From Patescibacteria group bacterium (lineage in GTDB: Bacteria > Patescibacteriota > Minisyncoccia > Minisyncoccales > Staskawiczbacteraceae), in NCBI GenBank assembly GCA_018829965.1, contig JAHJTG010000008.1, positions 9,314 to 73,313 on the forward strand: DNA of 64,000 nt, written 5' to 3'. The position numbers and the translations under genes are program-made. Position 1 is the stretch's first letter; each line of letters begins with the position of its first letter. This document shows, piece after piece, positions 20,306-34,952 of this stretch. The notes beneath the pieces are model-generated. The model was not told where the DNA came from and searched no databases. It saw only the letters and a list, made by a program, of their open reading frames with translations.

Positions 20306-20697
20306 AACGCTCTTTTTTAAACCCAGTTAAATAATTTTGCTTTTTCAAAATTAATGCAAAGCATTATTTAACGAGGTAAAGAATCAAAATAAAATAATGA
20401 ATAGCTAAAATCTGTATCTATCCTTATTCTTCCGCCTAAACTTTCTTGCGAAAATCTTGGCGGAGAAGCAAAGAATTTAACAATGATTTATTAGTACTTC
20501 TCGGCTGAATGGGTTGCCCCACTTACACCTGAAGCCTATCAACCTTGTCATCTTCAAGGAATCTAGGAGTTCTAATCTTGAGGTGGGTTTCGCGCTTAGA
20601 TGCTTTCAGCGCTTATCCCTTCCTAACTTAGCTACCCAGCAATGCTCCTGGCGGAACAACTGGTACACCAGAGGTTAGTCCAACCCGGTCCTCTCGT

Positions 20698-21461
20698 CAC
20701 ATAATCTTCTATCACTAGAAGTGTAGACTATATCTTCATCCCGCCTAGCGGGAGTCGGCGTATTATGATGGGTTTAAAGCCACCATCCTTCCTTAAAATA
20801 ATGATTTTAAGAAAAAGTCGTTACGGGGTCATATCTAAAATTTTTAATAATTCTTGCTTTGTTTTCTTTTTCTTGGCTATATAGTTATCCGATTGAATGG
20901 CTATAATATAATTTACTATCTTTTTTAATTCGTTTTTTGTTAAACAATTTTTCCTTTTCTTAGAAAAAAGACAAACAGCTTTATATAGTGCTTTCGCCTG
21001 CTTTTGTTTAAAACGAATAAAAGGTATTAAATCTTTTAGGATATTTTCTATTTGCTTGAATCCATTTATTCTTAATTCACTCATTCCGTCGTTTCTTTGA
21101 GAAAAATATCCTATACCAAGTTTTTTCTTTATCCAATGGAGTGGTTTTTCGTGACGACTATCTTGATAAAAACAGATAGTAGCCATTAAGCGCCAATTTG
21201 TTTTACCATCTTTGCGCTTCTTAATTTGAAGCATTAAGCTTCCGTCTCCATCGAGAAAACCTGCGATATAAGCTAAATTTATTTTAGATTGACTTCCCAC
21301 GGTATTATCTTAATAATTATAATTTCTGGTCCTCAAGTAAATTGTACCATAATTAATGGACCGATTGCAATTATGGTTATCAACGAACCAGATATATTAA
21401 GGTTTCACCGTTATTAGCCGAATTGTCATCGTGGATTACTCCACGAAGTAGCAAATTTCTT
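20698..21461 (-). mobile_element. Group I intron in the 23S sarcin-ricin loop
   Basis: Exons rejoin as CCCUAGU|ACGAGAGGACCGG. The intron follows U and ends in G. It contains AAUACCGUGGGAAG, CCCCGUAA.., and GAUAUAGUCU (S element). Confidence 0.85.
20821..21300 (-). CDS. LAGLIDADG homing endonuclease, single-motif (I-CreI-like, presumably homodimeric); GTG start
   Basis: LAYIAGFLDGDGSL near the N-terminus; 159 aa; lies wholly inside the intron. Confidence 0.9.
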   Translation of the reverse strand: MGSQSKINLAYIAGFLDGDGSLMLQIKKRKDGKTNWRLMATICFYQDSRHEKPLHWIKKKLGIGYFSQRNDGMSELRINGFKQIENILKDLIPFIRFKQKQAKALYKAVCLFSKKRKNCLTKNELKKIVNYIIAIQSDNYIAKKKKTKQELLKILDMTP

Positions 21462-21523
21462 ACTAGGGTCAGAGCCTCTCAAAACTCTACGATCGCGGTA
21501 GATAAGGACCAACCTGTCTCACG

Positions 21524-22214
21524 CATATTTGTCATTTATTACTAAATGTATGGACTATACCACTACCCAAATTAATTGGGTAATCGACGTTTTAGCCGCC
21601 GTTAGGCGACTCCGACCGATTAAGGTCAAGTCTCTACGGGGTCGATGTATACACCTTTCGATTCTTTGAATAATTTAATTCACGAAAAGTATCAATTAAT
21701 TTAGCAAGTTTATTAAAATCTTTCTGGCATTTAACTTTACTTTTTTGAACAATAATTTTTTTCAGGAGATTTATTTGAGCTTTCTTCATTAATACATACG
21801 GGCCAACGAGTCCGATAAATTTATTTATCCCCTCTTGGGTCCCAATAATATATTCGAGAATTCCATCTTTTCTAACCCTTAAATATCCTAAATTAATTAA
21901 AGCACAAACTTTAGCAAAATTATTTTGGTTTTTCTGTGATTGGAATAACACAATGTAATTTACAACTTGGAAACCATACTTATAAGTTTTGTTTGGTTTT
22001 AGTTGCGCATATACACTACCATCCCCATCAAGAAATCCAGCCAAATATGATCTTTGTGTTTGCGAAATTAATTTTTTCATACACGACTTCCCTCGGTATT
22101 ATCCTATCATACGACAGATTATAATGAAAGGACTTCACCGATATGAGTCGATTTATTCACTGTAATATTACTATTACAGGCCGCCTAGCTTGTTAACAGA
22201 TCAAGCTTTAGTCG
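21524..22214 (-). mobile_element. Group I intron in 23S domain V (after ~U2593, the I-CreI-type site)
   Basis: Exons rejoin as GGGUUCAAACCGU|CGUGAGACAGGUUGG. Core elements AAUACCGAGGGAAG, CCCCGUAGAGACUUGAC, GGUAUAGUCC. Confidence 0.85.
21634..22080 (-). CDS. LAGLIDADG homing endonuclease, I-CreI family
   Basis: SYLAGFLDGDGSVYAQLKPNKTYKYGFQV aligns by eye with I-CreI YLAGFVDGDGSIIAQIKPNQSYKFKHQL; 148 aa. Confidence 0.9.
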   Translation of the reverse strand: MKKLISQTQRSYLAGFLDGDGSVYAQLKPNKTYKYGFQVVNYIVLFQSQKNQNNFAKVCALINLGYLRVRKDGILEYIIGTQEGINKFIGLVGPYVLMKKAQINLLKKIIVQKSKVKCQKDFNKLAKLIDTFRELNYSKNRKVYTSTP

Positions 22215-22307
22215 ACGGTTTGAACCCAGCTCACGTAACACTTTAATTGGCGAACAGCCAAACCCTTGGGAGCGGCTTCACCCCCAGGATGTGTTGAGCC
22301 GACATCG

Positions 22308-22592
22308 CTGTCGGTAATTTTTCTCTCCTTACAGAGAGGTTCGGACTATATCTTCACCCTTTCTCAATAAGAAAGGGGCTGGCGTGTTAGCTCTCCAATT
22401 TTTTGGAGAACTCCGACTATTAAAAGTCAAGTCTCTACAGGGTTATAACCCAATCTTTTTAAGAATTGAGTTAAACTTCCCACGGTATTATCGTTTAGTT
22501 TTACTAATTTTACCATATGAACTAAGTACGATTCCACCGTTATAAGCCAGATTTTTGGTATAGCATTACTGCTATAGCACCCCGATTTGTTA
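22308..22592 (-). mobile_element. ORF-less group I intron in 23S domain V (after ~U2500) with a homing-endonuclease-gene relic
   Basis: Exons rejoin as GUUCGGCACCU|CGAUGUCGGCUC. Keeps AAUACCGUGGGAAG, CCUGUAGAGACUUGAC, GAUAUAGUCC. Only an 18-codon remnant (MGSLTQFLKRLGYNPVET*) lies between them. Confidence 0.8.
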
Positions 22593-23209
22593 AGGTGCCG
22601 AACAGAGCCGTCGCTATGGACGCTCGGGCTCTACCAGCCTGTTATCCCCGGAGTAGCTTTTGGTTGATGATCTTTCGCGGTTCTAATAACCACGATCGGT
22701 TCACTAAGTTCTGGTTTCCCAACTGCGCGACATATCCGTCTTGCAGTAAAGCCGGCATTTGGCTTTGCCCTATCGCTCCGATTTCCATCCGGAGCTAGCC
22801 GACCTTATAAACGCCTCCATTACCTTTTAGGAGGCAAGTGCCCCACTTAAACTGCCCATTAAACACTGTCTCCGCCTAAGGCGGATTAGAATCAGGGTTT
22901 TTAAAGGATGGTGTTTCATCGGCGACTCCACCCTGTCCGAAAACAAGGTTTCAAAGTCTCCCATCTACGCTACGCATTAAAAACCAAAACTCAATATCTA
23001 ACTACAGTAAAGCTTCCGGGGTCTTTCCGTCTAGCCGCGATTAACCGGCATCTTCACCGGTATTGCATTTTCACCGGGCTCCTCGTTGAGACAGTTCTCT
23101 AGTCGTTAAGCCATTCATGCGGGCCGGAACTTACCCGGCAAGGGATTACGCTACCTTTGGACGGTTATAGTTACCGCCGACGTTCACTGGTGCTTCAATC
23201 AATGAGCCC

Positions 23210-23320
23210 CACTCCGCTCCTTACTTCGTAAGAGCTTCGAAGGGGCAGGTATTCTTTTTTTCAGAATACTTGTCCTGCGTAGCTTTTTTTACGAAACAAA
23301 AAGCGAAGTAGGACCCTCAA
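23210..23320 (-). repeat. 23S hairpin insertion 1 (domain IV, ~E. coli 1860 region)
   Basis: ~110 extra nt relative to E. coli, with nested hairpins (caggtattc-ttttttt-cagaatacttg). Confidence 0.6.
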
Positions 23321-23427
23321 CTTTAACATTCCAGCACTGGTCAGGCTTCACCCCCTATACATCCTCTTACGAGTTAGCAGAGAGCTGTGTTTTTGATAAA
23401 CAGTCGCTAGAGATACGTTAGCTGCGT

Positions 23428-23572
23428 CCCACCGCACCTCGCTATGCTCGGTACTACCGCGGATTAACACGGATTTTAACTGATTAACACGGATAAAATA
23501 TCCGTATGAATCCAGTCGTATCCGCATGTATCCGTGGTACCAAACGCAGTGAGGTACGGTAGGAAGGCCATA
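23428..23572 (-). repeat. 23S hairpin insertion 2 (variable helix ~E. coli 1730)
   Basis: Outer arms cctcgctatgctcgg / ccaaacgcagtgagg enclose CGGAT-rich modules (family I, also at 38245-38300). Confidence 0.7.
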
Positions 23573-24712
23573 TTGCGAACTTACGGCCGCTTTTTTGCCG
23601 AGTTCCTTAACGAGGAATCACCCGTTCATCTTGGCACACTTACGCCGACCCACCTGTGTCGGTTTACGGTACGGTTCCCATTTTTTTAACCCTACGAGCT
23701 TTTCTAGACAACGCGCTCATCCGAATCGCCAGTGCCGAAGCACCAACTTTTCTCATTCCTTAGATTACTCCTAAGAACAAGAACATAAATCCAATAATTT
23801 GCTCGGACTACTGTGTTGTGTCACTCTTCAGAAAAAAATGGAAGGGACGGAATATTAACCGTCTAACCATTAGGTACGCCTTTCGGCTTCCCCTTAGGAC
23901 CGCCTAACCCTTGGCTGATTGCCATTGCCAAGGAACCCTTGGGTTTTCGATGTCCCGGTATTTCACCGAGATTGCGGTTACTCATGCCAACATTCTCTCT
24001 TCTTAACGCTCCACCAGACCTCACAGTCTAGCTTCGCAGCGATAAGAATGCTCTCCTACCACGCATAAAAACCTGAGTTTCTATGCATCCATATCTTCGG
24101 TATTAAGCTTTAGTCCCGATGAATCTTCGGCGCACTTTGCCTATATAGGACAGTGAGTTGTTACACACTCTTTAAAAGATAGCTACCTCTAAGCTAACTT
24201 CCTGCCTGTAAAGGGCAAAATACTTCCTTAATCTACACTTAGCTTAATTTTGGGACCTTAGATGATGATCTGGACTGTTCTCCTTACGACCATGGAGCTT
24301 AGCCCCCACAGTCTAACTGCCTTTTTGACGATGCTGGTATTCGGAGTTTAATTAGAATATCTGAGCGAAGCCCAAGAAATTCTATTTAGTGCTCTACCCC
24401 CAGCACCTAAACAAAAGACGCTAGCCCTAAAGCTATGTCGGAGAGAACCAGCTATTACCAAGCTCGATTAGCTTATCACTTCTTACCACAGGTCATCCCA
24501 GAGTATTGCACGGCTCAAGGGTTCGGACCTCCCCCGCTCTTTCGAGAGGGTTCATCCTGCCCATGGCAAGCTCGCCTGGCTTCGGGTCTCAACCACTCAG
24601 CTTAATTGTTTGCGCTATTAACGCTCGCTTTCGCTATGCCTCCACCCCGTAAGGGTTTAGACTAGCTGAGTAACTGAACTCGTTGGCTCGTTCTGCAAAA
24701 AGCACGCCATCA

Positions 24713-24898
24713 CCAGCCACATCTCGCTGCGCTCGATGTGTCTGGAAACCCTAAATCCTAAATCCGAAATCCTAAACAATAACTAAAATCCAAAATCAAA
24801 AACTTATTTTAAATTTGAAATTTAGAATTTGGAATTTGTTTAGAGTTTCGTGTTTAGTGCTTAGAATTTCCGCATCGAACAAAGTGAGATGCGGCCAG
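24713..24898 (-). repeat. 23S hairpin insertion 3 (helix 25 region, ~E. coli 540)
   Basis: Outer arms catctcgctgcgctcgatg / catcgaacaaagtgagatg enclose inverted heptamer arrays of family C. Confidence 0.7.
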
Positions 24899-25286
24899 CT
24901 CTGACTCGTTGTAAGCAAATGGTTTCAGGTTCTATTTCATCGGGGTCGCCCCCCTACTTTTCACCTTTCCCTCACGGTACTGGTTCACTATCGGTAATAT
25001 TGAGTATTTAGCCTTGGCCGTATAGTTCGGCCTGATTCCTGCCAGGTTATCATTCCCGACAGTACTTAAGTAAAATAGCAAGGAGCGTAAAGTCGTTTTC
25101 GTCTACAGGACTATTACCTTCTATGGTCACCCTTTCCAGGGTTATTTGACTAACGAAAAATTTATTCTTGCAGAGCAAAAATAAATTTACACTTTACCAA
25201 AATGTTCTCCCTCGGATAGAATCCAGCACTCTTTAACGTTTCAAAAAGTACTGGATGCTCCCGACGCTAAATCCTTGCAACCCCAA

Positions 25287-25425
25287 TCGCTCGCGCCTCG
25301 CTATGCTCGTCGCTTCGCTCTCCTACCAATTACGAATTTTTTCGAATTACGAATATTCGTAATTAGTTTAAATTGGTAATTCGTAGGAAGAGTAAGTGCC
25401 GAACGCAGTAAGGCACGAACGAATG
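25287..25425 (-). repeat. 23S hairpin insertion 4 (domain I, ~E. coli 270 region)
   Basis: Outer arms gcctcgctatgctcg / cgaacgcagtaaggc enclose ACGAAT modules of family B. Confidence 0.7.
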
Positions 25426-25471
25426 GTTTGGGCTCTTCCCTTTTCGCTCGCCACTACTAAGGGAATAACTG

Positions 25472-25747
25472 GTCCTACATCTCACAAATTCCGCTAAATT
25501 TAGAAACGAAATAATGCGCTAAATTCAAGACGCGATGACGAAACGCATAAGTGAAACGATGCGTTGAGGAAGAGCCTCGCAGAAGTTAGCCATTATTTCG
25601 CTTCCCTTTCGGGCGGGCGAATTCTGGACATATTCTTTGTTGCTCGTCGCTCACGTATCGCGTTGCTTATACGCTGTCGCTCCTCGCGTCGCGAATCTGT
25701 CGCAGAATTCGCTTCGCTAAATTAGTGCAATTTGTGAGATGCAGGAC
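25472..25747 (-). repeat. 23S insertion 5: 276-nt element with 19-bp terminal inverted repeats (domain I, ~E. coli 215)
   Basis: gtcctacatctcacaaatt ... aatttgtgagatgcaggac (18/19 complementary), with an internal gcgaattctg/cagaattcgc hairpin. No ORF and no group I core. Confidence 0.75.
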
Positions 25748-26333
25748 ATTTGTTCTCTTTTCCTCTGGGTACTGTGATGTTTCGCTTCCCCAGGTCTACC
25801 CCTAACCTTGCGGTCAGGTAATCCCGTTCTGCGGGATTGGGTTGCCCCATTCAGAAACCTCCGGATCAAAGGTTGCTAGCCACCTCCCCGAAGCTTATCG
25901 CAGGCACGCCACGTCTTTCATCGCCTCAATATTCCAAGGCATCCACCATTTGCCTATAAAATTATTTTCTTTGCGTAAGTTTATTCAACAATATAAATAC
26001 TGCTGAATGAATAGATACAGATTTTAGATATCTATTACTATTATATTTTTAGATGATTCTTTACTCTGTTAAAAAAAGACCCCTGTCTAAAGTTTAACAG
26101 AGTGGCCTAATTATATCTTTTTAAAAAAAGCAAGATTATAATTAGGGTTGTATTTTCAAAGTTCTTGATAAATATACTATTCTTAAAAAATTAAAAACCG
26201 CCTAGTTAAAGCGGTCCATCAGACATATACCCGCCTGCATCGCCTGTGGCGAAAGCCACTGCGGGCAGGCAAAAACTCGGAGTTTAACCGCTTCTTTTTC
26301 TAAAAATGGTTTTAATATTTATCATGTAAGGTT

Positions 26334-26362
26334 ATATTATTCTATAAATAAAAACGTGTCAA
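26334..26362 (-). promoter_or_regulatory. Candidate sigma70-type promoter for the 23S-5S unit
   Basis: Minus strand reads TTGACA-17 nt-TAATAT, ~360 nt upstream of the 23S 5' end and upstream of the processing stem. Confidence 0.45.
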
Positions 26363-26499
26363 GCCTTTCACCCTTTAAAAGAAGGTGTAGGGCACAGACC
26401 ATTGTCCTCCTGACGCGAAACTGGATCAATAATTTATGATATTATATACAAAATCTGTCACACAATATTGGGAGACCCGACCTCCCAATTAAATTAATT

Positions 26500-26533
26500 G
26501 AAAACAAAGCCCGGTCGCCTTAGGCGACCGGGC
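26500..26533 (-). terminator. Rho-independent terminator after the 26560-27240 gene
   Basis: gcccggtcgcc-taa-ggcgaccgggc hairpin followed (minus strand) by uuuguuuu. Confidence 0.7.
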
Positions 26534-26559
26534 TAATGTTTTCAATACTGAAAATTTAT

Positions 26560-27240
26560 CTATTTAATCTTTCTCTTTAAGTTCTCAATTGCTTGAGCTG
26601 CAGCATCTTTTCCACCTAAACCGAAAGCCAACATAACCGAACCGGCAATAGCGGCAACAATACCATAAACTATACCCTTGTATAGAATCTGGACTAAATC
26701 TGATTTTGGTAATAATTGATCTAAGATCATGAATATTAAGAAAATCCAAATTGTCCATCTTACGATAGAGGCTGCTAAATGAGCGTAACCGATTTTCATT
26801 TTCTCAACTGTTGCTCTTACTAACTTTTCTACGATATCAGCAATAACTACACCGACTACAAAAATTAAAACAGCGATAATGATGTTTGGGATATAGTTTA
26901 AGATATCCCTTAGAAGTTCTCCAAATTTAGTTAAATTTAGAATATCAACTGTTAATAATAATGTGACGATTACAAATATCCATTTAACGATAGCTCCAAT
27001 AAAAGCAGACGGATCCACTTTTATATCAGCTTTCTCAATGGCTTTCTGCCAACCTTCTTTTTCAAAAAGACGGTTGAATTTTAGTCCCTTCAAAAGTTCG
27101 GTTATAAATCTGCCGATTCCGACAGAGATGATATAGCCGATAACGAAGACAATTATTGCTATTATAAGTTGAGGAAGAAACGAAACCAATTCTTTAAGAA
27201 ATGGTTGTATAATTGTTACGTACCATTCTGGTGTTACCAT
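26560..27240 (-). CDS. Polytopic membrane protein (repeated TM-helix type, possibly mechanosensitive-channel-associated)
   Basis: ~6 TM helices with internal repeats; no catalytic motif. Confidence 0.5.
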   Translation of the reverse strand: MVTPEWYVTIIQPFLKELVSFLPQLIIAIIVFVIGYIISVGIGRFITELLKGLKFNRLFEKEGWQKAIEKADIKVDPSAFIGAIVKWIFVIVTLLLTVDILNLTKFGELLRDILNYIPNIIIAVLIFVVGVVIADIVEKLVRATVEKMKIGYAHLAASIVRWTIWIFLIFMILDQLLPKSDLVQILYKGIVYGIVAAIAGSVMLAFGLGGKDAAAQAIENLKRKIK

Positions 27241-27411
27241 ATTTATTTTAGGTTTAATTATCGATTTATTAATAAATAATTCGACCTTTATAAATTAGGC
27301 TTCTTGTCTGCCTGCGGTAGATCTCCCAAAGGGAGACAACCAGCCTAATCGTTAAACATTATTTTATTATGTGCTTATCTGCCTAAGAATCAACCCCTTA
27401 TGTGGATAATT

Positions 27412-28500
27412 CTATCCATGCTTTATCTCAATCACATCTCCGTCTTGAATGATATATTCCTTTCCTTCTGTTCTTATTAATCCCCTCTCTCTTGCCTTAG
27501 AAAAACCGCCGGCTTCAATCAAATCTTTCCAATTAATAACCTCGGCTTTAACAAACGTCTTTTCAAAATCGCTATGGATTACTCCTCCTGCTTGCGGAGC
27601 CATCTCCCCTCTTTTTATTGTCCAAGCACGCGTCTCATCTGTCCCAGTTGTCAAAAAAGTAATTAGACTTAACAGCTCGTAAGATTTTTTAACTAAAATA
27701 TCTGTTTCTGACTCTGGAGGAAATCCCAAAGAGATTCTTTCTTCTTTTAAGAAACCTGCTGTTTCAAATTCTGAAGCGATGTCTACTATTAAATACGGCC
27801 AACTTGTCTCGCCAGAATTGGCTGGGTTATTCTTTTTAAAAACCTCTAAAGTATTTTGATCCACCTCCTCATCTTTTCCGTTTAAAAGATACAGCCTTGG
27901 TTTTAATGTTAATAATTGAAAACTATCCAAAATTTTCTTCTCTTCATCTGTAAAGCTTTGCTCAACTAATATTTTTTCTTCAGTTAAAAATTCTTTTGCT
28001 TTTTTTAATACTTCCATTTCCTTAATCGCCTCCTTCCTATTAGCCCTTACATCACCCTCCAAGCCATGTATTCTTTTCGTAATAGTATCTAAATCTTTTA
28101 AAATTAATTCTACGTCTAAGATCCCTTTATCTCTTAATGGACTTATTGATTCTTGCGTGTTAATAATATCGGAATTAGAAAAAGCGCGAAGGATATATAT
28201 GATTGCATCTGTTTCACGAATATTTGCTAAAAACTTGTTTCCCAAGCCTTCGCCTTCGCTCGCCCCTTTTACCAAGCCGGCGATATCAACAAACTCAATG
28301 GTTGTATAAATCTTCTTTGCAGAACTAGTTAATTCAGCTAATTTATCAACTCTTTCGTCTGGAACCAAAACAACCCCTACATTAGGGTCAATTGTACAAA
28401 AAGGATAATTAGCAATATCCACTTCCTTTTTGGTTAATGTTTTAAATAGAGTGGACTTACCTACATTCGGTAATCCTACAATGCCTATACTAAGTGCCAT
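27412..28500 (-). CDS. ychF: Ribosome-binding ATPase YchF
   Basis: G1 GLPNVGKST, NYPFCTIDPN, DIAGLV.GAS.G.GLGN.FL, C-terminal TGS-like domain. Confidence 0.95.
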   Translation of the reverse strand: MALSIGIVGLPNVGKSTLFKTLTKKEVDIANYPFCTIDPNVGVVLVPDERVDKLAELTSSAKKIYTTIEFVDIAGLVKGASEGEGLGNKFLANIRETDAIIYILRAFSNSDIINTQESISPLRDKGILDVELILKDLDTITKRIHGLEGDVRANRKEAIKEMEVLKKAKEFLTEEKILVEQSFTDEEKKILDSFQLLTLKPRLYLLNGKDEEVDQNTLEVFKKNNPANSGETSWPYLIVDIASEFETAGFLKEERISLGFPPESETDILVKKSYELLSLITFLTTGTDETRAWTIKRGEMAPQAGGVIHSDFEKTFVKAEVINWKDLIEAGGFSKARERGLIRTEGKEYIIQDGDVIEIKHG

Positions 28501-28529
28501 TTATAAATTTTTAAAATTATTTTTTTATA

Positions 28530-28883
28530 TTAAAACCTATAAATATTGCCCTCCGATGGAGTTTCAATATTAGTATTTGCTAAAACTTTTTTTATTCTCT
28601 CTGCTTCATTTTCAATTATTTCCCCGTCGTATTCTCCACTATGACTATGCGCTCCACTATTTTCATATGAAGCAAACTTCTGATCTAAATGAAGATTGAA
28701 GATAAACTCGTTATGGTCCTCATCTTTTTTTATAAACACATGGAATCTCGGGTAACCATATCCCCTGCTTAAATCCTTAACAAGGCTTTCTTCGCCGTTC
28801 TCGCTTTTTCTGCCAATCTTATATCCAATCTTCTTCGCCATATTTACAATAGTTTCGTTAGTGTTTTTAACTATAAATTTCAT
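28530..28883 (-). CDS. Hypothetical protein (117 aa; start moved to Met66 of the tracked ORF)
   Basis: The ORF-track N-terminus reads through tRNA-Ala and repeat DNA. MKFIVKN... begins 8 nt downstream of the tRNA. Confidence 0.5.
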   Translation of the reverse strand: MKFIVKNTNETIVNMAKKIGYKIGRKSENGEESLVKDLSRGYGYPRFHVFIKKDEDHNEFIFNLHLDQKFASYENSGAHSHSGEYDGEIIENEAERIKKVLANTNIETPSEGNIYRF

Positions 28884-28891
28884 ATTATTTA

Positions 28892-28962
28892 TGGACCCTG
28901 CGAGAATCGAACTCGCATCTCCTCGTTGCAAACGAGGTGTGCTACCACTATACCAAGGGCCC
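28892..28962 (-). tRNA. tRNA-Ala (anticodon UGC)
   Basis: Acceptor GGGCCCU/AGGGUCC with the G3:U70 identity pair; anticodon stem CCUCG/CGAGG with loop UUUGCAA; T arm GCGAG-UUCGAUU-CUCGC. Confidence 0.85.
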
Positions 28963-28965
28963 ACC

Positions 28966-29060
28966 AAAGCTATCGAGAATCTTCGATTTCTTTCAGAAAT
29001 CGGGACAAATGTCCCGATGGCTGTTGCCATCGCGGATGCTCGATTTTGCTCGGCAAAATC
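28966..29060. repeat. Family A module cluster (GTCCCGAT / TCGAGnATCnTCGA words)
   Basis: atcgagaatcttcgat, tttctttcagaaatcgggac, gtcccgatggctgttgccatcg, cgattttgctcggcaaaatcg: concatenated small hairpins. Confidence 0.75.
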
Positions 29061-29092
29061 GGCAAGGTGTTCTACCACTAAACTAAAGCCCC
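29061..29092 (-). pseudogene. Orphan tRNA 5' half (acceptor strand, U8, D arm, start of anticodon stem)
   Basis: GGGGCUU-UA-GUUU-AGUGGUA-GAAC-A-CCUUG then runs straight into family A repeats. No matching 3' half (CAAGG... AAGCCCC) before tRNA-Ala. Confidence 0.5.
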
Positions 29093-29093
29093 C

Positions 29094-29423
29094 CTAATTT
29101 ATCCCCCAGAATTTTATTATTTGGACATCATCTAACCCCCAAATTCTCATTAGAATAAAATCCTTGAAATCGCTTATAATTATACCCATACTCAAAAAAA
29201 TCAAAACGTATCCAACATATTTTCTGCTTTTTTTAAAAAACAAATAAGATAAACTGATAAATAACAATAACAACCCAAATATCCAATGATGCGGAATCCA
29301 TATTATCTGCCCCCCAATGATATGCCCTATTCTCCCGATAGCATATCCCATAAACACTGCGAAGGTATATATAAAATATTTTATAGACATTATTGCTCTT
29401 AATAATATCTTACCTTTTTCCAA
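29094..29423 (-). CDS. Small membrane protein
   Basis: Three predicted TM helices; 109 aa. Confidence 0.5.
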   Translation of the reverse strand: MEKGKILLRAIMSIKYFIYTFAVFMGYAIGRIGHIIGGQIIWIPHHWIFGLLLLFISLSYLFFKKSRKYVGYVLIFLSMGIIISDFKDFILMRIWGLDDVQIIKFWGIN

Positions 29424-29483
29424 TAGTTTTTCAAGCCAGCAGGCGCAGGATTGCCAAGCACTAATCTACGGATAGTGCTCGGC

Positions 29484-29512
29484 TAAAACAAAAAACCGCA
29501 TTTCACGGTTTT
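29484..29512 (-). terminator. Rho-independent terminator downstream of the 16S gene
   Basis: aaccg-ugaaau-gcgguu hairpin followed by uuuuuguuuu on the minus strand. Confidence 0.6.
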
Positions 29513-29698
29513 TTGTTTTAGTTTCTTAAAGCTGTTTCGAATATCCGATTTTGACGATTTCGTACAGTAGCAAGCTGTATGAAACATTACTTCGGTAAAC
29601 GTTTTAACTTGAAATCCAAATTTAAGACTTCAAATTAAGTCGACAAAAAAATATAAAAAAATTGATCCACGACCAGGTTCCCCTAGCCGTGCCTTGTT

Positions 29699-30477
29699 CA
29701 TGCTATTCCCCTATATCGCTATAAGGCATGGACTATATCATCATCCTTTCACAAAATATTTTTGACTTTACTGGATGGTAAGAATTTACAATTTTAGCAA
29801 ATCTCTCGTGATGTTTAGTAGAAACAAATATTCTCCAATAATCAGGGTCAACTTTTTTACTCGGATTATGGATTTTTCCAGTTTCTATCTTTAAACTTTT
29901 GAGAAGTAACTTTAATTGCTTGATTTTGCTTAAATCCTTTTGGACTAACTGAATATAAAATCTGTCTTTTGTATGAGGAACGCCACCTTCGGCGTCAAAA
30001 AATCCTTTTACATAAAACAATTTTTCATAATAGTTATCCAAATTTATAGGATTAAATTTGAAATCTAAGTCTTTACAAAGTGTCTCTAAAACATACATAT
30101 TTCTATCCTTTCCCTCTTTGTAAATCCATGATTTGCAATTAATTTTACCTAGCAAAATTTGTAAATTTTCCAACCACTGCTTATTTTTCTGGGAGAATCT
30201 AATTCTCTTTCCTTTGTTTAAAGAGGCATCATGAATCGCTCCATTTAAATAAGCTATAATCTCATATTTTGTGGTAGGAGTTCGGCGTGTAGTCTCTGAG
30301 GGGTCAATTCTAATTTTATTAGAACGACTTCCCTGCTGATTGTCTGCACTAGAAACATTTTCACTCATATTATCTTATTATAATATGAGTAGTCCTAGAT
30401 TCACAGATGTTCCAGCATACAGCCAACTTTTTCTCTAAGGGTTACCCCTATGAGGTCGCAACATGCAGATTGCACTG
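29699..30477 (-). mobile_element. Group I intron in 16S after U1498 (decoding centre, inside the 1492R primer site)
   Basis: Exons rejoin as GGGGCUAAGUCGU|AACAAGGCACGG. ACAAUCAGCAGGGAAG and CCCCUCAGAGACUAC lie 5' of most of the ORF; GAUAUAGUCC lies 3' of it. Confidence 0.85.
29733..30368 (-). CDS. LAGLIDADG homing endonuclease (double-motif)
   Basis: IIAYLNGAIHDAS and VKGFFDAEGGV motifs. The tracked N-terminus reads through intron core elements, so the true start is uncertain. Confidence 0.8.
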   Translation of the reverse strand: MSENVSSADNQQGSRSNKIRIDPSETTRRTPTTKYEIIAYLNGAIHDASLNKGKRIRFSQKNKQWLENLQILLGKINCKSWIYKEGKDRNMYVLETLCKDLDFKFNPINLDNYYEKLFYVKGFFDAEGGVPHTKDRFYIQLVQKDLSKIKQLKLLLKSLKIETGKIHNPSKKVDPDYWRIFVSTKHHERFAKIVNSYHPVKSKIFCERMMI

Positions 30478-30893
30478 ACGACTTAGCCCCTCTTATTAAG
30501 CCCAGCGTAGGATCCCGTAAACGGGACACTTCGGCTGTTCCTAACTCGCTTGGCTTGACGGGCGGTGAGTACAAGACTCAGGAACATATTCATCGCCGCA
30601 TAGCTGATCGGCGATTACTAGCGATTCCAACTTCATGAGGGCGGGTTTCAGCCCTCAATCCGAACTAAGACCGATTTTGGTGGGATTTGCTTCACCTTGC
30701 GGTTTTGCGTCCCATTGTCTCGGCCATTGTACCACGTGTGCGGCCCAAGTCATCAAAGGGCCATGCTGATTTGGCGTCATCCTCGCCTTCCTCCCAGTTG
30801 TCCCGGGCAGTCCCCTATGACATATAAAACATAGGGCAAGGGTTGCGCTCGTTACCCGAATTAACGGTACGTCTCAAGACACGAGCTGACGAC

Positions 30894-31713
30894 CATATTG
30901 ATCTATAATTTCTTATAGTATGGACTATACCATCTTCCATCCGCCTGAGGCGGATTAGGAGACCAGCGTTTAATGATAGGTTATATCATTAAGTTTTCTC
31001 GCCTTTAGAGAAAACTAAGTCTCTACGGGGTATAAAAACTAATTTTTGTAATTTTATCGAATAATTATAAATTTTTTCTAAAAATTCTCTTGCCTGGTAT
31101 CGCGAGATATAAAGGCAAAATGTCTTTGCTGTTTTGTAGTAATAAATTTTTGTATTACTAATTCCTATCCTTAAAAGAAGACTTTTATCAATTTCTGCTT
31201 CATTTTTATTTCCATATACTATCCTGCAATCATTTCTAAAGTTCTTATCGATTGAACCGTCTCCATCAAACCTTCCTGCAAAATATGCATTAATTAAATT
31301 ATCTTTTTCTAATTTAATTAAATTATTTCGTGCCTCTCTAAATTCTCTCAGGAATGGACGGCTATTAACAAAAATATGATTTCTATTAAATTTTATCCTA
31401 TCTTCAGAAAAAAACTTCAATAGAAAATCTTTAAACTTGGCTATCAAAGCAGGGTCTACATTACTTAGACCAATCGAACTTGACCACCAATAACTATCTG
31501 CACACCAAAGTCCTAAGATATAAGAATCTTCTTCTCTAGAGAAAAAATTACAAAAATTAGTTTTTATACTTCCCACGGTATTGCCATTAATTATTATATT
31601 TTAACATAATAATTAGAAGGTTTCACCGTTATGAGCTGGTTTTTTACCGTATTAAAATAAATTAGTACGGGGCATTTCACTAAAAATTACTTTTTAGTGG
31701 GTCGTTATAACAC
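30894..31713 (-). mobile_element. Group I intron in 16S helix 34 (after ~U1060)
   Basis: Exons rejoin as GGUGCUGCAUGGUU|GUCGUCAGCUCGUG. Core elements AAUACCGUGGGAAG, CCCCGUAGAGACUUAG, GGUAUAGUCC. Confidence 0.85.
30989..31576 (-). CDS. LAGLIDADG homing endonuclease (double-motif); GTG start
   Basis: YILGLWCADSYWW and AYFAGRFDGDGSI motifs; 195 aa. Confidence 0.85.
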   Translation of the reverse strand: MGSIKTNFCNFFSREEDSYILGLWCADSYWWSSSIGLSNVDPALIAKFKDFLLKFFSEDRIKFNRNHIFVNSRPFLREFREARNNLIKLEKDNLINAYFAGRFDGDGSIDKNFRNDCRIVYGNKNEAEIDKSLLLRIGISNTKIYYYKTAKTFCLYISRYQAREFLEKIYNYSIKLQKLVFIPRRDLVFSKGEKT

Positions 31714-31981
31714 AACCATGCAGCACCTGTTCTGCTGCCTTGTGGGGGGCCATCCTTTCAGACGGCTTTCAACAGAATTTCTAGACTTGGTAAGGTTCTT
31801 CGTTTGTTGTCGAATTAAGCCACATGGTCCACCGCTTGTGTGAGTCCCCGTCTATTTCTTTGAGTTTTAGCCTTGCGGCCGTACTTCCCAGGCGGATCAC
31901 TTAACGCATTAGCTTCGCCACTGACAGGGTCGACACTGCCAATAGCCAGTGATCATCGTTTACAGCGTGGACTACAAGGGT

Positions 31982-32961
31982 CATCTTGTAGTTTTTTCTT
32001 ATTTCTTCGATTACTCGAAGGATCGGACTATATCATTTTCTGAAGTTTTTCCATTTGTTTTTCTTTTCAGTAATATATTTTTCTACTACTGCTTTAGAAA
32101 AACCTGTCAATTCACTAACTTCAGAAATCCAGCGTTGTTGTAAATCATGGTCTTTGTAAATAATCAAGACCTTCGGTAGCATTTCTGCCACTTTTATATG
32201 CGGCATTATAATCCGCAAAAACTTCTTTAACTCTTCGCTTGAGCGAATCCATAAACGATAATATATTCTTTCTTCATTCATCCATTTTCTAGTTATTTTA
32301 CCAATATGAACATTTATGTCCCATACTTTTTTTAAGTAATTAGACAATAATTTTTGCTCTTCATAAGAAAAACAATCTGTACAAAATACTCCCTTCCTTC
32401 CATTACCTATTATAGATCCATCATCAAGCCACCATATCGCTAAAGATAAAGGAGTTATTGCATTAAGCCACTTACGGCTAATTTTAAATACTCCTTTTTT
32501 ATGAGTTAAATCATATAACTCTGTTAATTCTGGTATTGCTACGCTTTGATATCGCAATTTTTGACCGCCAAATCCATCTTTTATTTCTGATTTCCAAAAA
32601 TAGTTTTCCCCGGAAATTTCCTTTAATTCATTTACTTTCCAGAAAAAATATTCCTTTTGCTTGATAGAATGACGGAAAGAAAAACGAGCATTTTTATAAT
32701 TATCGTTAATCTTCAGCGATCCATCGCCTAGCAAAGAACCAAGAATAATATCTTTGCAATTTTTAGACAAAAATGAATTTTTCATTTTCTATCTTTTTGA
32801 CTTACATAGTCTCTACGGGGTCGCTATCTTAAAAAGACGCGACTTCCCTCGGGATTATCCATCCGACTAAAATGGGTTTCCCCGATACAGCTAGATGCTC
32901 ACCATATTGTCACCAATATGGAGGACACCATTTAGTCTGTTAATTTCACAGACAAGGATTT
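31982..32961 (-). mobile_element. Group I intron in the 16S 790 loop (after U793, inside the 806R primer site)
   Basis: Exons rejoin as GGAUUAGAU|ACCCUUGUAGUCCACGC. AAUCCCGAGGGAAG and CCCCGUAGAGACUAUG precede the ORF; GAUAUAGUCC follows it. Confidence 0.85.
32033..32785 (-). CDS. LAGLIDADG homing endonuclease (double-motif, with C-terminal helical extension)
   Basis: IILGSLLGDGSL and LAIWWLDDGSI motifs; 250 aa. Confidence 0.9.
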   Translation of the reverse strand: MKNSFLSKNCKDIILGSLLGDGSLKINDNYKNARFSFRHSIKQKEYFFWKVNELKEISGENYFWKSEIKDGFGGQKLRYQSVAIPELTELYDLTHKKGVFKISRKWLNAITPLSLAIWWLDDGSIIGNGRKGVFCTDCFSYEEQKLLSNYLKKVWDINVHIGKITRKWMNEERIYYRLWIRSSEELKKFLRIIMPHIKVAEMLPKVLIIYKDHDLQQRWISEVSELTGFSKAVVEKYITEKKNKWKNFRK

Positions 32962-33239
32962 ATCTAATCCTTTTTGATCCCCACGCTTTCATTCCTCAGT
33001 GTCAGAATCGTCCCAGCTAACTGCCTTCGCTTTTGGTGTTCCCGACGATATCAACGGATTTCACCCCTACACCGTCGGTTCCGTTAGCCTCTAACGTCCT
33101 CTAGTCAAATAGTATCTTTAGCAATTCAAAGGTTAAGCCGATGAGTTTTAACTAAAGACTTATTTAACCACCTACGAATCCTTTATGCCCAGTAAATCCG
33201 GGTAACGCTCGGGGGTTCTGTATTACCGCTCCTGCTGGC

Positions 33240-34072
33240 CGAATAACGAAAAATTATTCGTTTTGGACTATATCATCACCTCGCTTCAGCGAGGGTTCGG
33301 CGTCTGATGATGGGTTCAAATACCACCATCTCATCCACTTAAGGATTCAGTCTCTGAGGGGTTAAAGCACAATAAGGTAATCTTTTTGAAAAACACGAAA
33401 TAATATTCGGAGAGATCAAATTTAAAAATTTATCTCTTCCTTTTGCCCCGATATATATTTCAGGATATCTTTTGCCTCTGCAAAGAGGCGTATGAATATT
33501 GGATTCTATTCCGAAGTTTTTCTTTAAAACCTCAACCAATAATTTATTCTCTTCGACGCTAAATGCATTTGTGCAAAAAGAAAAATTATAATGGTCTTTC
33601 GGTCTGAAATCTAAACTTCCATCGTCCATATACCATACAGCTAAACTTAATGGAGAAATTAATAACTCCTGAATGTTTTTTGGAACAATTTTCTTTCCAT
33701 TTTTATAAAATATTTCTTTGTATCTAGAGATATCTTCTAAAAATTTCGTTTGAAAATACCATTGCTTATTATCTTTCCTCTGTTTTGGCGAACTTTTGCA
33801 TAAATTTTCAAAGCAAGAATATAACCAGAATACATATTCTTTATGTGCTTCTGATTGTTTTATTCTCAAGCATTTTCCATCTATCCAAGCATCGCCCAAA
33901 AGAGTGCCGATAATAATTTCGTGTTGTTTCTTTGTCATTACCTAATTATACTCAACTTCCCTGCTGATTGTCACATTAAAATTATCAACTTTGTGATAAA
34001 GGAGCATTAATGTGCTTTCCAGCATATAAGCCGAATTTTGATTCTGCGCCCGCCAACCTTCATGGGTTGGCC
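33240..34072 (-). mobile_element. Group I intron in the 16S 530 loop (after U516, inside the 515F primer site)
   Basis: Exons rejoin as CCUAAUUCUGU|GCCAGCAGGAGCGGUAAUAC. Core elements ACAAUCAGCAGGGAAG, CCCCUCAGAGACUGAAUCC, GAUAUAGUCC. Confidence 0.85.
33339..33938 (-). CDS. LAGLIDADG homing endonuclease (double-motif)
   Basis: IIIGTLLGDAWI and LAVWYMDDGSL motifs; 199 aa. Confidence 0.9.
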   Translation of the reverse strand: MTKKQHEIIIGTLLGDAWIDGKCLRIKQSEAHKEYVFWLYSCFENLCKSSPKQRKDNKQWYFQTKFLEDISRYKEIFYKNGKKIVPKNIQELLISPLSLAVWYMDDGSLDFRPKDHYNFSFCTNAFSVEENKLLVEVLKKNFGIESNIHTPLCRGKRYPEIYIGAKGRDKFLNLISPNIISCFSKRLPYCALTPQRLNP

Positions 34073-34371
34073 ACAGAATTAGGACCCCCTTATTCCTTCG
34101 GTACTGTCAGTCGCCAAAGGCGACTTCCTCCCGAAGAAAAGAACTTTACACTCCGAAGAGTTTCTTCATTCACGTAACGTCGCTCCATCAGGCTTTCGCC
34201 CATTGTGGAAGATTCTCGACTGCAGCCTCCCGTAGGAGTATGGCCCGTGTCGCAGTGCCATTGTTGGGGAACACGCTCTCACGCCCCCTACCCGTCATAG
34301 TCTTGGTAGGCCGTTACCCTGCCAACTAACTGATAGGCCGCAGGCCCATCTCAAAGTGGATTGCTCCTTTA

Positions 34372-34498
34372 CTCCTCCTTCGCTCTTCATTCCATTCAGA
34401 GCTACGACGGACGAGCCTTGCTTTACGCTTGCAAAGTATAAATACCTTGCGGCTTTGTCCATCTGAAGCTTTTTATGAAATAAAAAGCGAAAGAGGAG
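34372..34498 (-). repeat. 16S hairpin insertion (~E. coli 190-220 region)
   Basis: ~125 extra nt bounded by ctcctccttcgc / gcgaaagaggag inverted arms; no ORF. Confidence 0.65.
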
Positions 34499-34952
34499 AC
34501 TATCGGAAATTAGCCAATCTTTCGACTGGTTATGTCCGTCTTTGAGGTTGGTACCTACGTGTTACTAACCCGTTCGCCACTGACCCTTGCGGGTCCGTTT
34601 GACTTGCATGCCTTATCCACGTTACCAGCGTTCACCCTGAGCTAGAATCAAACTCTCAAAAAATTGAAGTTTGATTTAAAAGAAAATAAATTCTCTTTTG
34701 AATCTAGTTACAATGTGATAGCTTTATTCGAAACAACTTTAAAAAACTAATTATTTATCCAGTTTAAATAGGTTATTTTAAACTGGGGTGCATTATTAAT
34801 TTATCAATGTACGGGGTATTTGTTTTGAAAAACAAATCCCGAAGATATCCATCTTTACTTAAAGATAAATATCTTCGGGGTTCATTCAACCATTTTAAAT
34901 TTTAATTCTCCATCAATTTATATTTTTTATTTATTTTTTATATGCAATTACT

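Follow-up and report, generated by a model that had tools for sequence, protein, structure and literature searches.

A 64,000-nt stretch of DNA from a Patescibacteria group bacterium (hereafter the window) carries on its minus strand a 16S rRNA gene that is divided into five exons by four inserts. We consider it very probable that this is a working 16S gene of the Parcubacteria type from the Candidate Phyla Radiation (CPR), invaded at conserved sites by four mobile group I introns with homing endonucleases. Here we establish the boundaries of the inserts, the RNA core structures of the introns, the covariation of these structures among relatives, and the integrity of the four open reading frames (ORFs). 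The inserts follow E. coli positions 516, 793, 1060, and 1498 (sites S516, S793, S1060, and S1498), which we take to lie in the 530 loop, the 790 loop, helix 34, and the decoding site, respectively.

The gene extends from position 34663 to approximately 29660 (Table 1). A cmscan of the window identified a single bacterial small-subunit (SSU) rRNA in three pieces (33974-34663, 31895-31964, and 30456-31890) together with one 23S rRNA, one 5S rRNA, and three tRNAs, in keeping with the split 16S gene that a first-pass annotation had placed on this strand. The five exons so defined were concatenated, and a MAFFT alignment of the resulting sequence with E. coli rrsH gave 68% identity. The breaks fall after U516, U793, U1060 (given earlier as about U1060), and U1498, and universal 16S sequence is regained at all four joins, confirming the exact rejoining previously claimed. 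The joined sequences are CUAAUUCUGU to GCCAGCAGG (after 516), GGAUUAGAU to ACCCUUGUAGUCC (after 793), GCAUGGUU to GUCGUCAGCUCG (after 1060), and AAGUCGU to AACAAGG (after 1498). Intron-less relatives have the same sequence without interruption, for example GGATTAGAT to ACCCTTGTAGTCC in locus L003. From sequence alone, the first two junctions have a 1-nt ambiguity, the third one of at most 2 nt, and the fourth is unique. Among the ambiguous positions we chose those with a U before the insert and a G at its end, which gives the positions of the first-pass annotation. With these boundaries, each of the four inserts is preceded by U and terminates with G, as had been noted before. The inserts amount to 3412 nt and the exons to about 1592 nt, including a 105-nt expansion in exon 1, instead of the approximately 1.47 kb of exon sequence stated earlier.

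The four introns share a group I architecture. Reading the core helices from the sequence and then locating them in window coordinates, we found the P3-P7 pseudoknot, the P4-P6 domain, P8, P9, a P7 with a bulged nucleotide, and the terminal G in all four. P1 with the splice-site U·G pair comprises 5-7 bp in introns 1, 3, and 4, but is a 3-bp candidate only in intron 2. P10 pairings are GCC/GGC, ACC/GGU, GU/AC, and AACA/UGUU in introns 1 to 4, respectively. The core words quoted in the first-pass annotation are present, albeit as GGUAUAGUCC rather than GAUAUAGUCC in intron 3 and as AAUCCCGAGGGAAG in intron 2. Intron 1 has P1 AUUCUGU/GCAGAAU (guide at 34047-34041) and P3 UUCGGC/GCCGAA; its P6 loop contains the ORF, and two hairpins stand between P7 and P3'. 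Intron 3 has P1 GGUUGU/ACGACC (guide at 31705-31700), a P2 with a GUAA loop, P3 CCAGC/GCUGG, and a 16-bp P6a stem enclosing the ORF, followed by P7.1, P7.2, P8, and P9. Intron 4 has P1 GUCGU/GCGAC (guide at 30459-30455) with the P10 strand UGUU immediately adjacent (30463-30460), a P2 with a GUAA loop, P3 UUGGC/GCCGA, and a P9 with a GCGA loop, and its ORF occupies P8.

In intron 2, the ORF is situated between the 5' strand of P7 and P3'. Its candidate guide GGUGUC (32929-32924) would provide both P10 (GGU/ACC) and P1 (GUC/GAU). P3 is formed by AUCUAGC (32896) and GCUGGAU (32133), and P8 by UCUGAAGUU (32125) and AACUUCAGA (32047), such that the P3' and P8 strands are located within the last 40 or so codons of the ORF. 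Other assignments were rejected. A P3' directly after P7, and one within the stretch coding for LLGDG of the ORF (GCUAGG), were discarded as their pairing is not kept in relatives. GUCUG was dismissed as a guide because it forms the 5' side of a hairpin that covaries, with GUCUGU/ACAGAC in the window and GUGUGC/GCAUAC in L078, and ACUAAAU on the 3' side of this hairpin is not conserved.

Relatives were collected by a scan with the protein of intron 1 (ORF1), one genome per species, which returned more than 470 relatives, mostly metagenome-assembled genomes (MAGs) of Parcubacteria/Patescibacteria, and by a scan of metagenome contigs with that of intron 3 (ORF3), which returned 49. The closest relatives being Parcubacteria/Patescibacteria MAGs, the earlier attribution to the CPR fits. 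Mapping the spliced 16S sequence onto fetched relative loci placed their inserts and revealed that the same four sites are repeatedly occupied by homologous introns in dozens of public CPR contigs.

The S1060 family was analysed in an alignment of 24 introns (A1) with the ORF cut out of the P6 loop, by counting the pairs of the structure. Across these homologues, 93.4% of the cells are paired, compared with 36-47% in slid controls, and both partners have changed in 53 of the 89 pairs; values this high did not occur in any of 500 shuffles. All 24 introns have the splice-site U·G, all five P3 pairs show compensatory changes, P7 is invariant, and the exon pair U1059-A changes to C-G in concert with the guide sequence. 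The hairpin extending P1 was misaligned by MAFFT and excluded from the test, whereas P8, also misaligned, was retained and is only 69% paired. In a nested notation, P3 and P7 had reached only 21% and 38% pairing because the two helices cross as a pseudoknot; with separate brackets both reach 100%.

Compensatory changes are also found at the other sites. At S516, fourteen homologues retain P1 and P3 in this way, with four exon variants and complementary guides (UUCUGU/GCAGAA, CUCUGU/GCAGAG, CUACGU/GCGUAG, and CCUCGU/GCGAGG) and seven P3 variants, nearly all fully paired. At S1498, 22 introns of 251-995 nt have the guide GCGAC in common, which in most of them is preceded by UGUU, as it is in the window, and L005 combines the exon change AAGUUGU (C-to-U) with the matching guide GUAAC (G-to-A). 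At S793, the core is defined by two members that have no ORF, L104 (284 nt) and L126 (296 nt); P3 is retained through AUCUAGC, AUCCAGC, AUCCAAC/GUUGGAU, and AUUCAGC, and P8 and P9 are swapped for different complementary helices among relatives. Moreover, relatives with a contiguous core exceed the 50-bit gathering threshold of Rfam Intron_gpI (RF00028) at three of the sites, namely S1498 (ORF-less L018, 86.7 bits), S793 (L126, 70.3), and S516 (core of L015, 68.9).

Some family members deviate in detail. The S516 introns of L004, L005, L009, and L015 lack a terminal G when the boundary is set after U516. Those of L004 and L009 begin with G, and a one-base shift (after G517) yields a terminal G together with a preceding G, while no shift is possible in L005. 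In the S793 family (intron 2 of the window, L083, L084, L104, and L126), the first intron bases, AAAUCCUUGU, mimic the 3' exon, ACCCUUGU, and form pairs with AAGGAUU of the exon, and the last intron bases, CUACAAG, do so with CUUGUAG of the exon; each splice site is therefore placed in a small hairpin loop, in imitation of helix 24 of 16S rRNA. Where the exon side is altered, in L005 and L006, the intron has the matching change.

Intron 1 shares 90.6% nucleotide identity with the S516 intron of L002 (JAUSNC010000014.1, a Parcubacteria MAG) and ORF1 shares 93% protein identity with its counterpart, compared with only 78.9% identity for exon 1. The intron is closer to L002 than its host gene is, which points to a spread of intron 1 by horizontal transfer, probably through homing. 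S516 group I introns are also present in L014, L016, and L019, contigs labelled Gammaproteobacteria, Blastocatellia, and Anaerolineae (labels as given). Some related 16S genes contain a group II-like element (Rfam group-II-D1D4-1; L015 5703-5784 and L018 4737-4834), which the window gene does not have, and other relatives have a 16S insert near position 1400-1405.

As the first-pass annotation had stated, every intron contains an intact LAGLIDADG ORF: all four match Pfam families (Table 1), and each translation has two LAGLIDADG motifs including the acidic residue. The motifs are LLGDAWI and WYMDDGS in ORF1, LLGDGSL and WWLDDGS in ORF2, LWCADSY and RFDGDGS in ORF3, and AIHDASL and FFDAEGG in ORF4. 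ORF1 aligns over its full length with I-SceI (PDB 5a0m; E 3.8e-15), with both motifs matched, and a sequence search of the PDB with ORF3 gave no meaningful match. The ORF4 frame opens in P5, passes through P4', P6, P7, and P3', and enters P8. The 49 relatives of ORF3 in metagenome contigs are nearly all at the same 16S site, and a search for contigs encoding ORF1 returned only two short contigs. In distant hosts, a given LAGLIDADG protein lineage is found again at its own 16S site. Together with the high identity of intron 1 to that of L002, this recurrence is indirect evidence that the products of ORF1 to ORF4 would cleave intron-less targets site-specifically.

Table 1. Exons, introns, and intron-encoded ORFs of the 16S gene, and introns of the 23S gene, in window coordinates
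Feature	Position	Strand	Basis or assignment
16S exon 1	34073..34663	-	E. coli 1-516; cmscan SSU_rRNA_bacteria 379 bits; MAFFT alignment stops at U516
Intron 1 (S516), 833 nt	33240..34072	-	group I
16S exon 2	32962..33239	-	E. coli 517-793; rrsH alignment
Intron 2 (S793), 980 nt	31982..32961	-	group I
16S exon 3	31714..31981	-	E. coli 794-1060; cmscan pieces and rrsH alignment
Intron 3 (S1060), 820 nt	30894..31713	-	group I
16S exon 4	30478..30893	-	E. coli 1061-1498; cmscan 355 bits and rrsH alignment
Intron 4 (S1498), 779 nt	29699..30477	-	group I
16S exon 5	29660 (approx.)..29698	-	E. coli 1499 to ~1537; rrsH alignment
ORF1, 199 aa, LAGLIDADG_2, I-SceI type	33339..33938	-	PF03161 E 1.4e-40, model positions 2-164/168
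ORF2, 250 aa, LAGLIDADG_2	32033..32785	-	PF03161 E 3.6e-39
ORF3, 195 aa, LAGLIDADG_3	30989..31576	-	PF14528 E 1.1e-12, two stretches
ORF4, 211 aa, LAGLIDADG_3	29733..30368	-	PF14528 E 1.7e-16, two stretches
23S ORF-less group I intron, 285 nt	~22308-22592	-	Rfam Intron_gpI 65.9 bits, above threshold
23S introns with LAGLIDADG ORFs (two)	21634-22080; 20821-21300	-	breaks relative to E. coli 23S

The interrupted gene itself looks functional, judging from its exons. The 530-loop pseudoknot is split by intron 1 and is nevertheless complementary, with GGA at 524-526 (exon 2) facing UCC at 505-507 (exon 1). Intron-bearing relatives have GGC/GCC, UGC/GCA, UCC/GGA, and UAC/GUA at these positions, all complementary. 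This covariation across intron 1 suggests that the exons act together in one folded RNA. The 16S gene is upstream of tRNA-Ala(UGC), 23S, and 5S, all on one strand.

The following sequence of events could account for these observations. Transcription of the 16S gene would yield a precursor of some 5 kb, in which each intron adopts the group I core fold. The guide sequence would pair with the 3' end of the preceding exon to form P1, with the U·G at the splice site, which free guanosine would attack. The guide would then position the downstream exon via P10, and the terminal G would guide ligation, restoring the universal 16S sequence. On the DNA level, the two-motif LAGLIDADG enzyme would cut intron-less copies of its site and thereby spread the intron, and it may also aid RNA folding. 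Splicing in vivo, whether by the RNA itself or with assistance by a protein, as well as endonuclease activity, are predictions from the sequence.

Several observations weigh against this interpretation. All 16S introns of the window score below the Intron_gpI threshold or give no match: the matches that the first-pass annotation had led us to expect were obtained for intron 4 (43.4 bits, E 8e-9, 30280-30472), intron 2 (partial, 32006-32125, 27.2 bits, E 5.8e-4), and intron 3 (14 bits), but all are sub-threshold, and cmscan of the window found none for intron 1. We attribute the low scores to the ORFs of 600-750 nt that split the cores. In addition, P1 of intron 2 is only a candidate of 3 + 3 bp, albeit with the sole plausible guide sequence, and is beyond the reach of covariation because the exon never varies there; competing hairpins pair both ends of this intron with the exons. 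Core helices are also part of the frames of ORF2 and ORF4, an overlap that might come at the expense of the protein or of the ribozyme. Finally, our view is confined to the 64-kb window, and a second, intron-less rRNA operon may exist elsewhere.

The low Intron_gpI scores and the pairing of both ends of intron 2 with the flanking exons would also be compatible with intervening sequences (IVSs), which are excised by RNase III without ligation of the pieces, leaving the 16S rRNA in five fragments. As is predicted for the window inserts, the IVSs known from 23S rRNA are extra sequences in the gene that are absent from the mature RNA, and unligated IVSs occur in reduced-genome bacteria and probably also in CPR bacteria (PMC11270868). 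However, IVSs are short, have ends that pair in a long stem, lack a ribozyme core, and sit at helix tips, whereas the 16S inserts, at 779-980 nt, interrupt universally conserved single-stranded functional loops and have full group I cores with covariation in relatives at all four sites. Each has a 5' U·G, a terminal G, and an adjacent P10, none of which is needed by an RNase III substrate, and relatives pass the group I model. We therefore regard excision as IVSs as highly improbable. Just as improbable in our judgement is that the gene is a decaying or silent copy serving as a sink for mobile introns, with an intact intron-less operon elsewhere making the ribosomes. The limited view of the genome and the heavy load of four 16S and three 23S introns would suit such a copy, but the exons retain every universal block, and their structures fit together across the introns, also in the 505-507/524-526 pseudoknot. 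Furthermore, the rRNA genes stand in normal order on one strand, and many independent contigs share the multi-intron arrangement. CPR genomes usually have one copy of each rRNA gene, half of these with inserts (PMC11270868).

Removal of the introns might also proceed without self-splicing if one or more of the cores require a LAGLIDADG maturase or host factors. The very short P1 of intron 2 and the overlap of ORF2 and ORF4 with core helices are in line with such a requirement, and LAGLIDADG proteins with maturase activity are known (PMC11270868). On the other hand, the cores are complete and conserved, and ORF-less relatives of 251-296 nt persist at S793 and S1498; the splicing of these introns must, at least in cis, do without a protein of their own. 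We consider a dependence on proteins unlikely overall, albeit a serious alternative to autonomous splicing by mobile group I introns. A more speculative thought, to which we give little credence, is that the introns are more than passengers: ordered splicing together with translation of the intron proteins might act as a checkpoint or timer of ribosome assembly, kept by selection as well as by homing. This idea arises from the presence of seven group I introns in functional centres of both rRNAs in a tiny genome, from the S793 ends that mimic helix 24, and from an endonuclease frame that doubles as the P3'/P8 strands.

The four-intron 16S gene is a further case of a known CPR trait. Inserts were reported in 48% of CPR 16S genes, with up to 5627 bp in one gene, with LAGLIDADG_2 and LAGLIDADG_3 ORFs in association with group I cores, with position 1498 named among the sites, and with introns in the 3' end of 23S at 2593 and 2657 and multiple inserts per gene (Tsurumaki et al., 2024, J Bacteriol; PMC11270868). 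The window gene shares the host group, the location in conserved 16S regions, both LAGLIDADG families, site 1498, the multiplicity, and the 3' 23S introns with these genes. It does not differ in kind, being distinguished by four recurrent sites that are filled together with all ORFs intact. The site numbers 16IS4-7 and 16IS10 of that study are given in figures, and the match by name covers position 1498 among the four sites. According to its summary of Brown et al. (2015), inserts in CPR rRNA are removed from the transcripts (PMC11270868). In vitro self-splicing has been demonstrated for group I introns in Patescibacteria tRNAs (PMC13011429), and we found no in vitro self-splicing test of CPR rRNA introns in the literature.

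The first-pass annotation was right about the kind of gene and overstated its rarity by calling four introns in one gene extreme. The 16S gene of L106 (Ga0210057_1010594) has five inserts of at least 200 nt with a total of 3956 nt, near 471 (placed roughly), 794, 1061, 1406, and 1499, four of them at or near the sites of the window, and L078 and L004 have four inserts each among the fetched loci. Counting inserts of at least 200 nt in 23 near-complete 16S genes of the fetched loci, which are a biased sample, gave mostly one to three inserts per gene, with none in 1/23, four in 1/23, and five in 1/23.

Introns in the 16S genes of giant sulfur bacteria have reportedly been found to self-splice in experiments. 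Papers citing Salman et al. (2012, PNAS) describe several introns in these genes, some with LAGLIDADG ORFs, and the resulting PCR bias, similar to the window. As described there, these genes differ in their gammaproteobacterial host, the inclusion of a group II intron, and the group I subclasses IA3, ID, and IC1. The intron of I-SceI in yeast mitochondrial large-subunit (LSU) rRNA resembles intron 1 in being a group I intron of an rRNA gene that carries, within a loop, the frame of a monomeric two-motif enzyme, although the gene (LSU versus 16S), the site, and the host differ and the sequence similarity to ORF1 is distant. The window gene leaves the knowledge of rRNA introns in these bacteria unchanged. 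What it adds are exact junctions, guides, and core helices for the S516, S793, S1060, and S1498 families with comparative support, and the mapped introns can help in choosing constructs for splicing or endonuclease assays.

The positions of the introns have consequences for primer and probe design. Reading from the sequence, the seven 3' bases of both 806R and 1492R would face intron sequence, such that neither can prime on the 16S gene of the window. Primer 515F loses its two 5' bases to the intron and has two lineage-specific mismatches at 525-526. The interruption of all three primer sites, as claimed by the first-pass annotation, is hence evident from the sequence, and such effects had already been stated in the literature.

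The 23S gene (20450-25969, minus strand) is longer than the 22161-25969 reported by cmscan, with its last exon reaching about 20554 or beyond. It is broken after E. coli 23S positions ~2500, ~2594, and ~2657-2660, and the rRNA genes of the window together have a minimum of seven group I introns and of six endonuclease ORFs. The first-pass annotation had ribosome biogenesis depend on four splicing events; because of the three additional group I introns in 23S, the whole ribosome would require at least seven. Since cmscan alone fragments the 16S gene and misplaces the 23S end, the mapped junctions are useful for annotation. Between the 16S and 23S genes lies a spacer of about 3.7 kb (26000-29660), which contains, on the same strand, tRNA-Ala(UGC) at 28891-28963, an ORF for a YchF-like GTPase at 27412-28500, and further ORFs.

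The 3' end of the 16S gene (29655-29675, minus strand) reads GGAUCAAUUUUUUU, without the CCUCC anti-Shine-Dalgarno sequence. A fifth intron followed by a CCUCC tail was sought downstream of 29660 and not found; a terminator-like hairpin follows the gene. Shine-Dalgarno-like words are rare upstream of 52 long ORFs (GGAG 2/52, AGGA 1/52). CCUCC is also absent in the relatives L005 and L009 and retained in L003 and L008, and loss of the anti-Shine-Dalgarno sequence has been reported for a Parcubacteria subgroup (PMC9297842).

Two further extra segments have no ORF and are not group I introns. One is the 105-nt expansion in exon 1 (approximately 34385-34490, minus strand, near E. coli position 200), and the other, of about 280 nt, is inserted close to position 230 of the 23S gene (25466-25750, minus strand) and may be of the IVS kind. 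Both could be expansion segments or RNase III-type IVSs.

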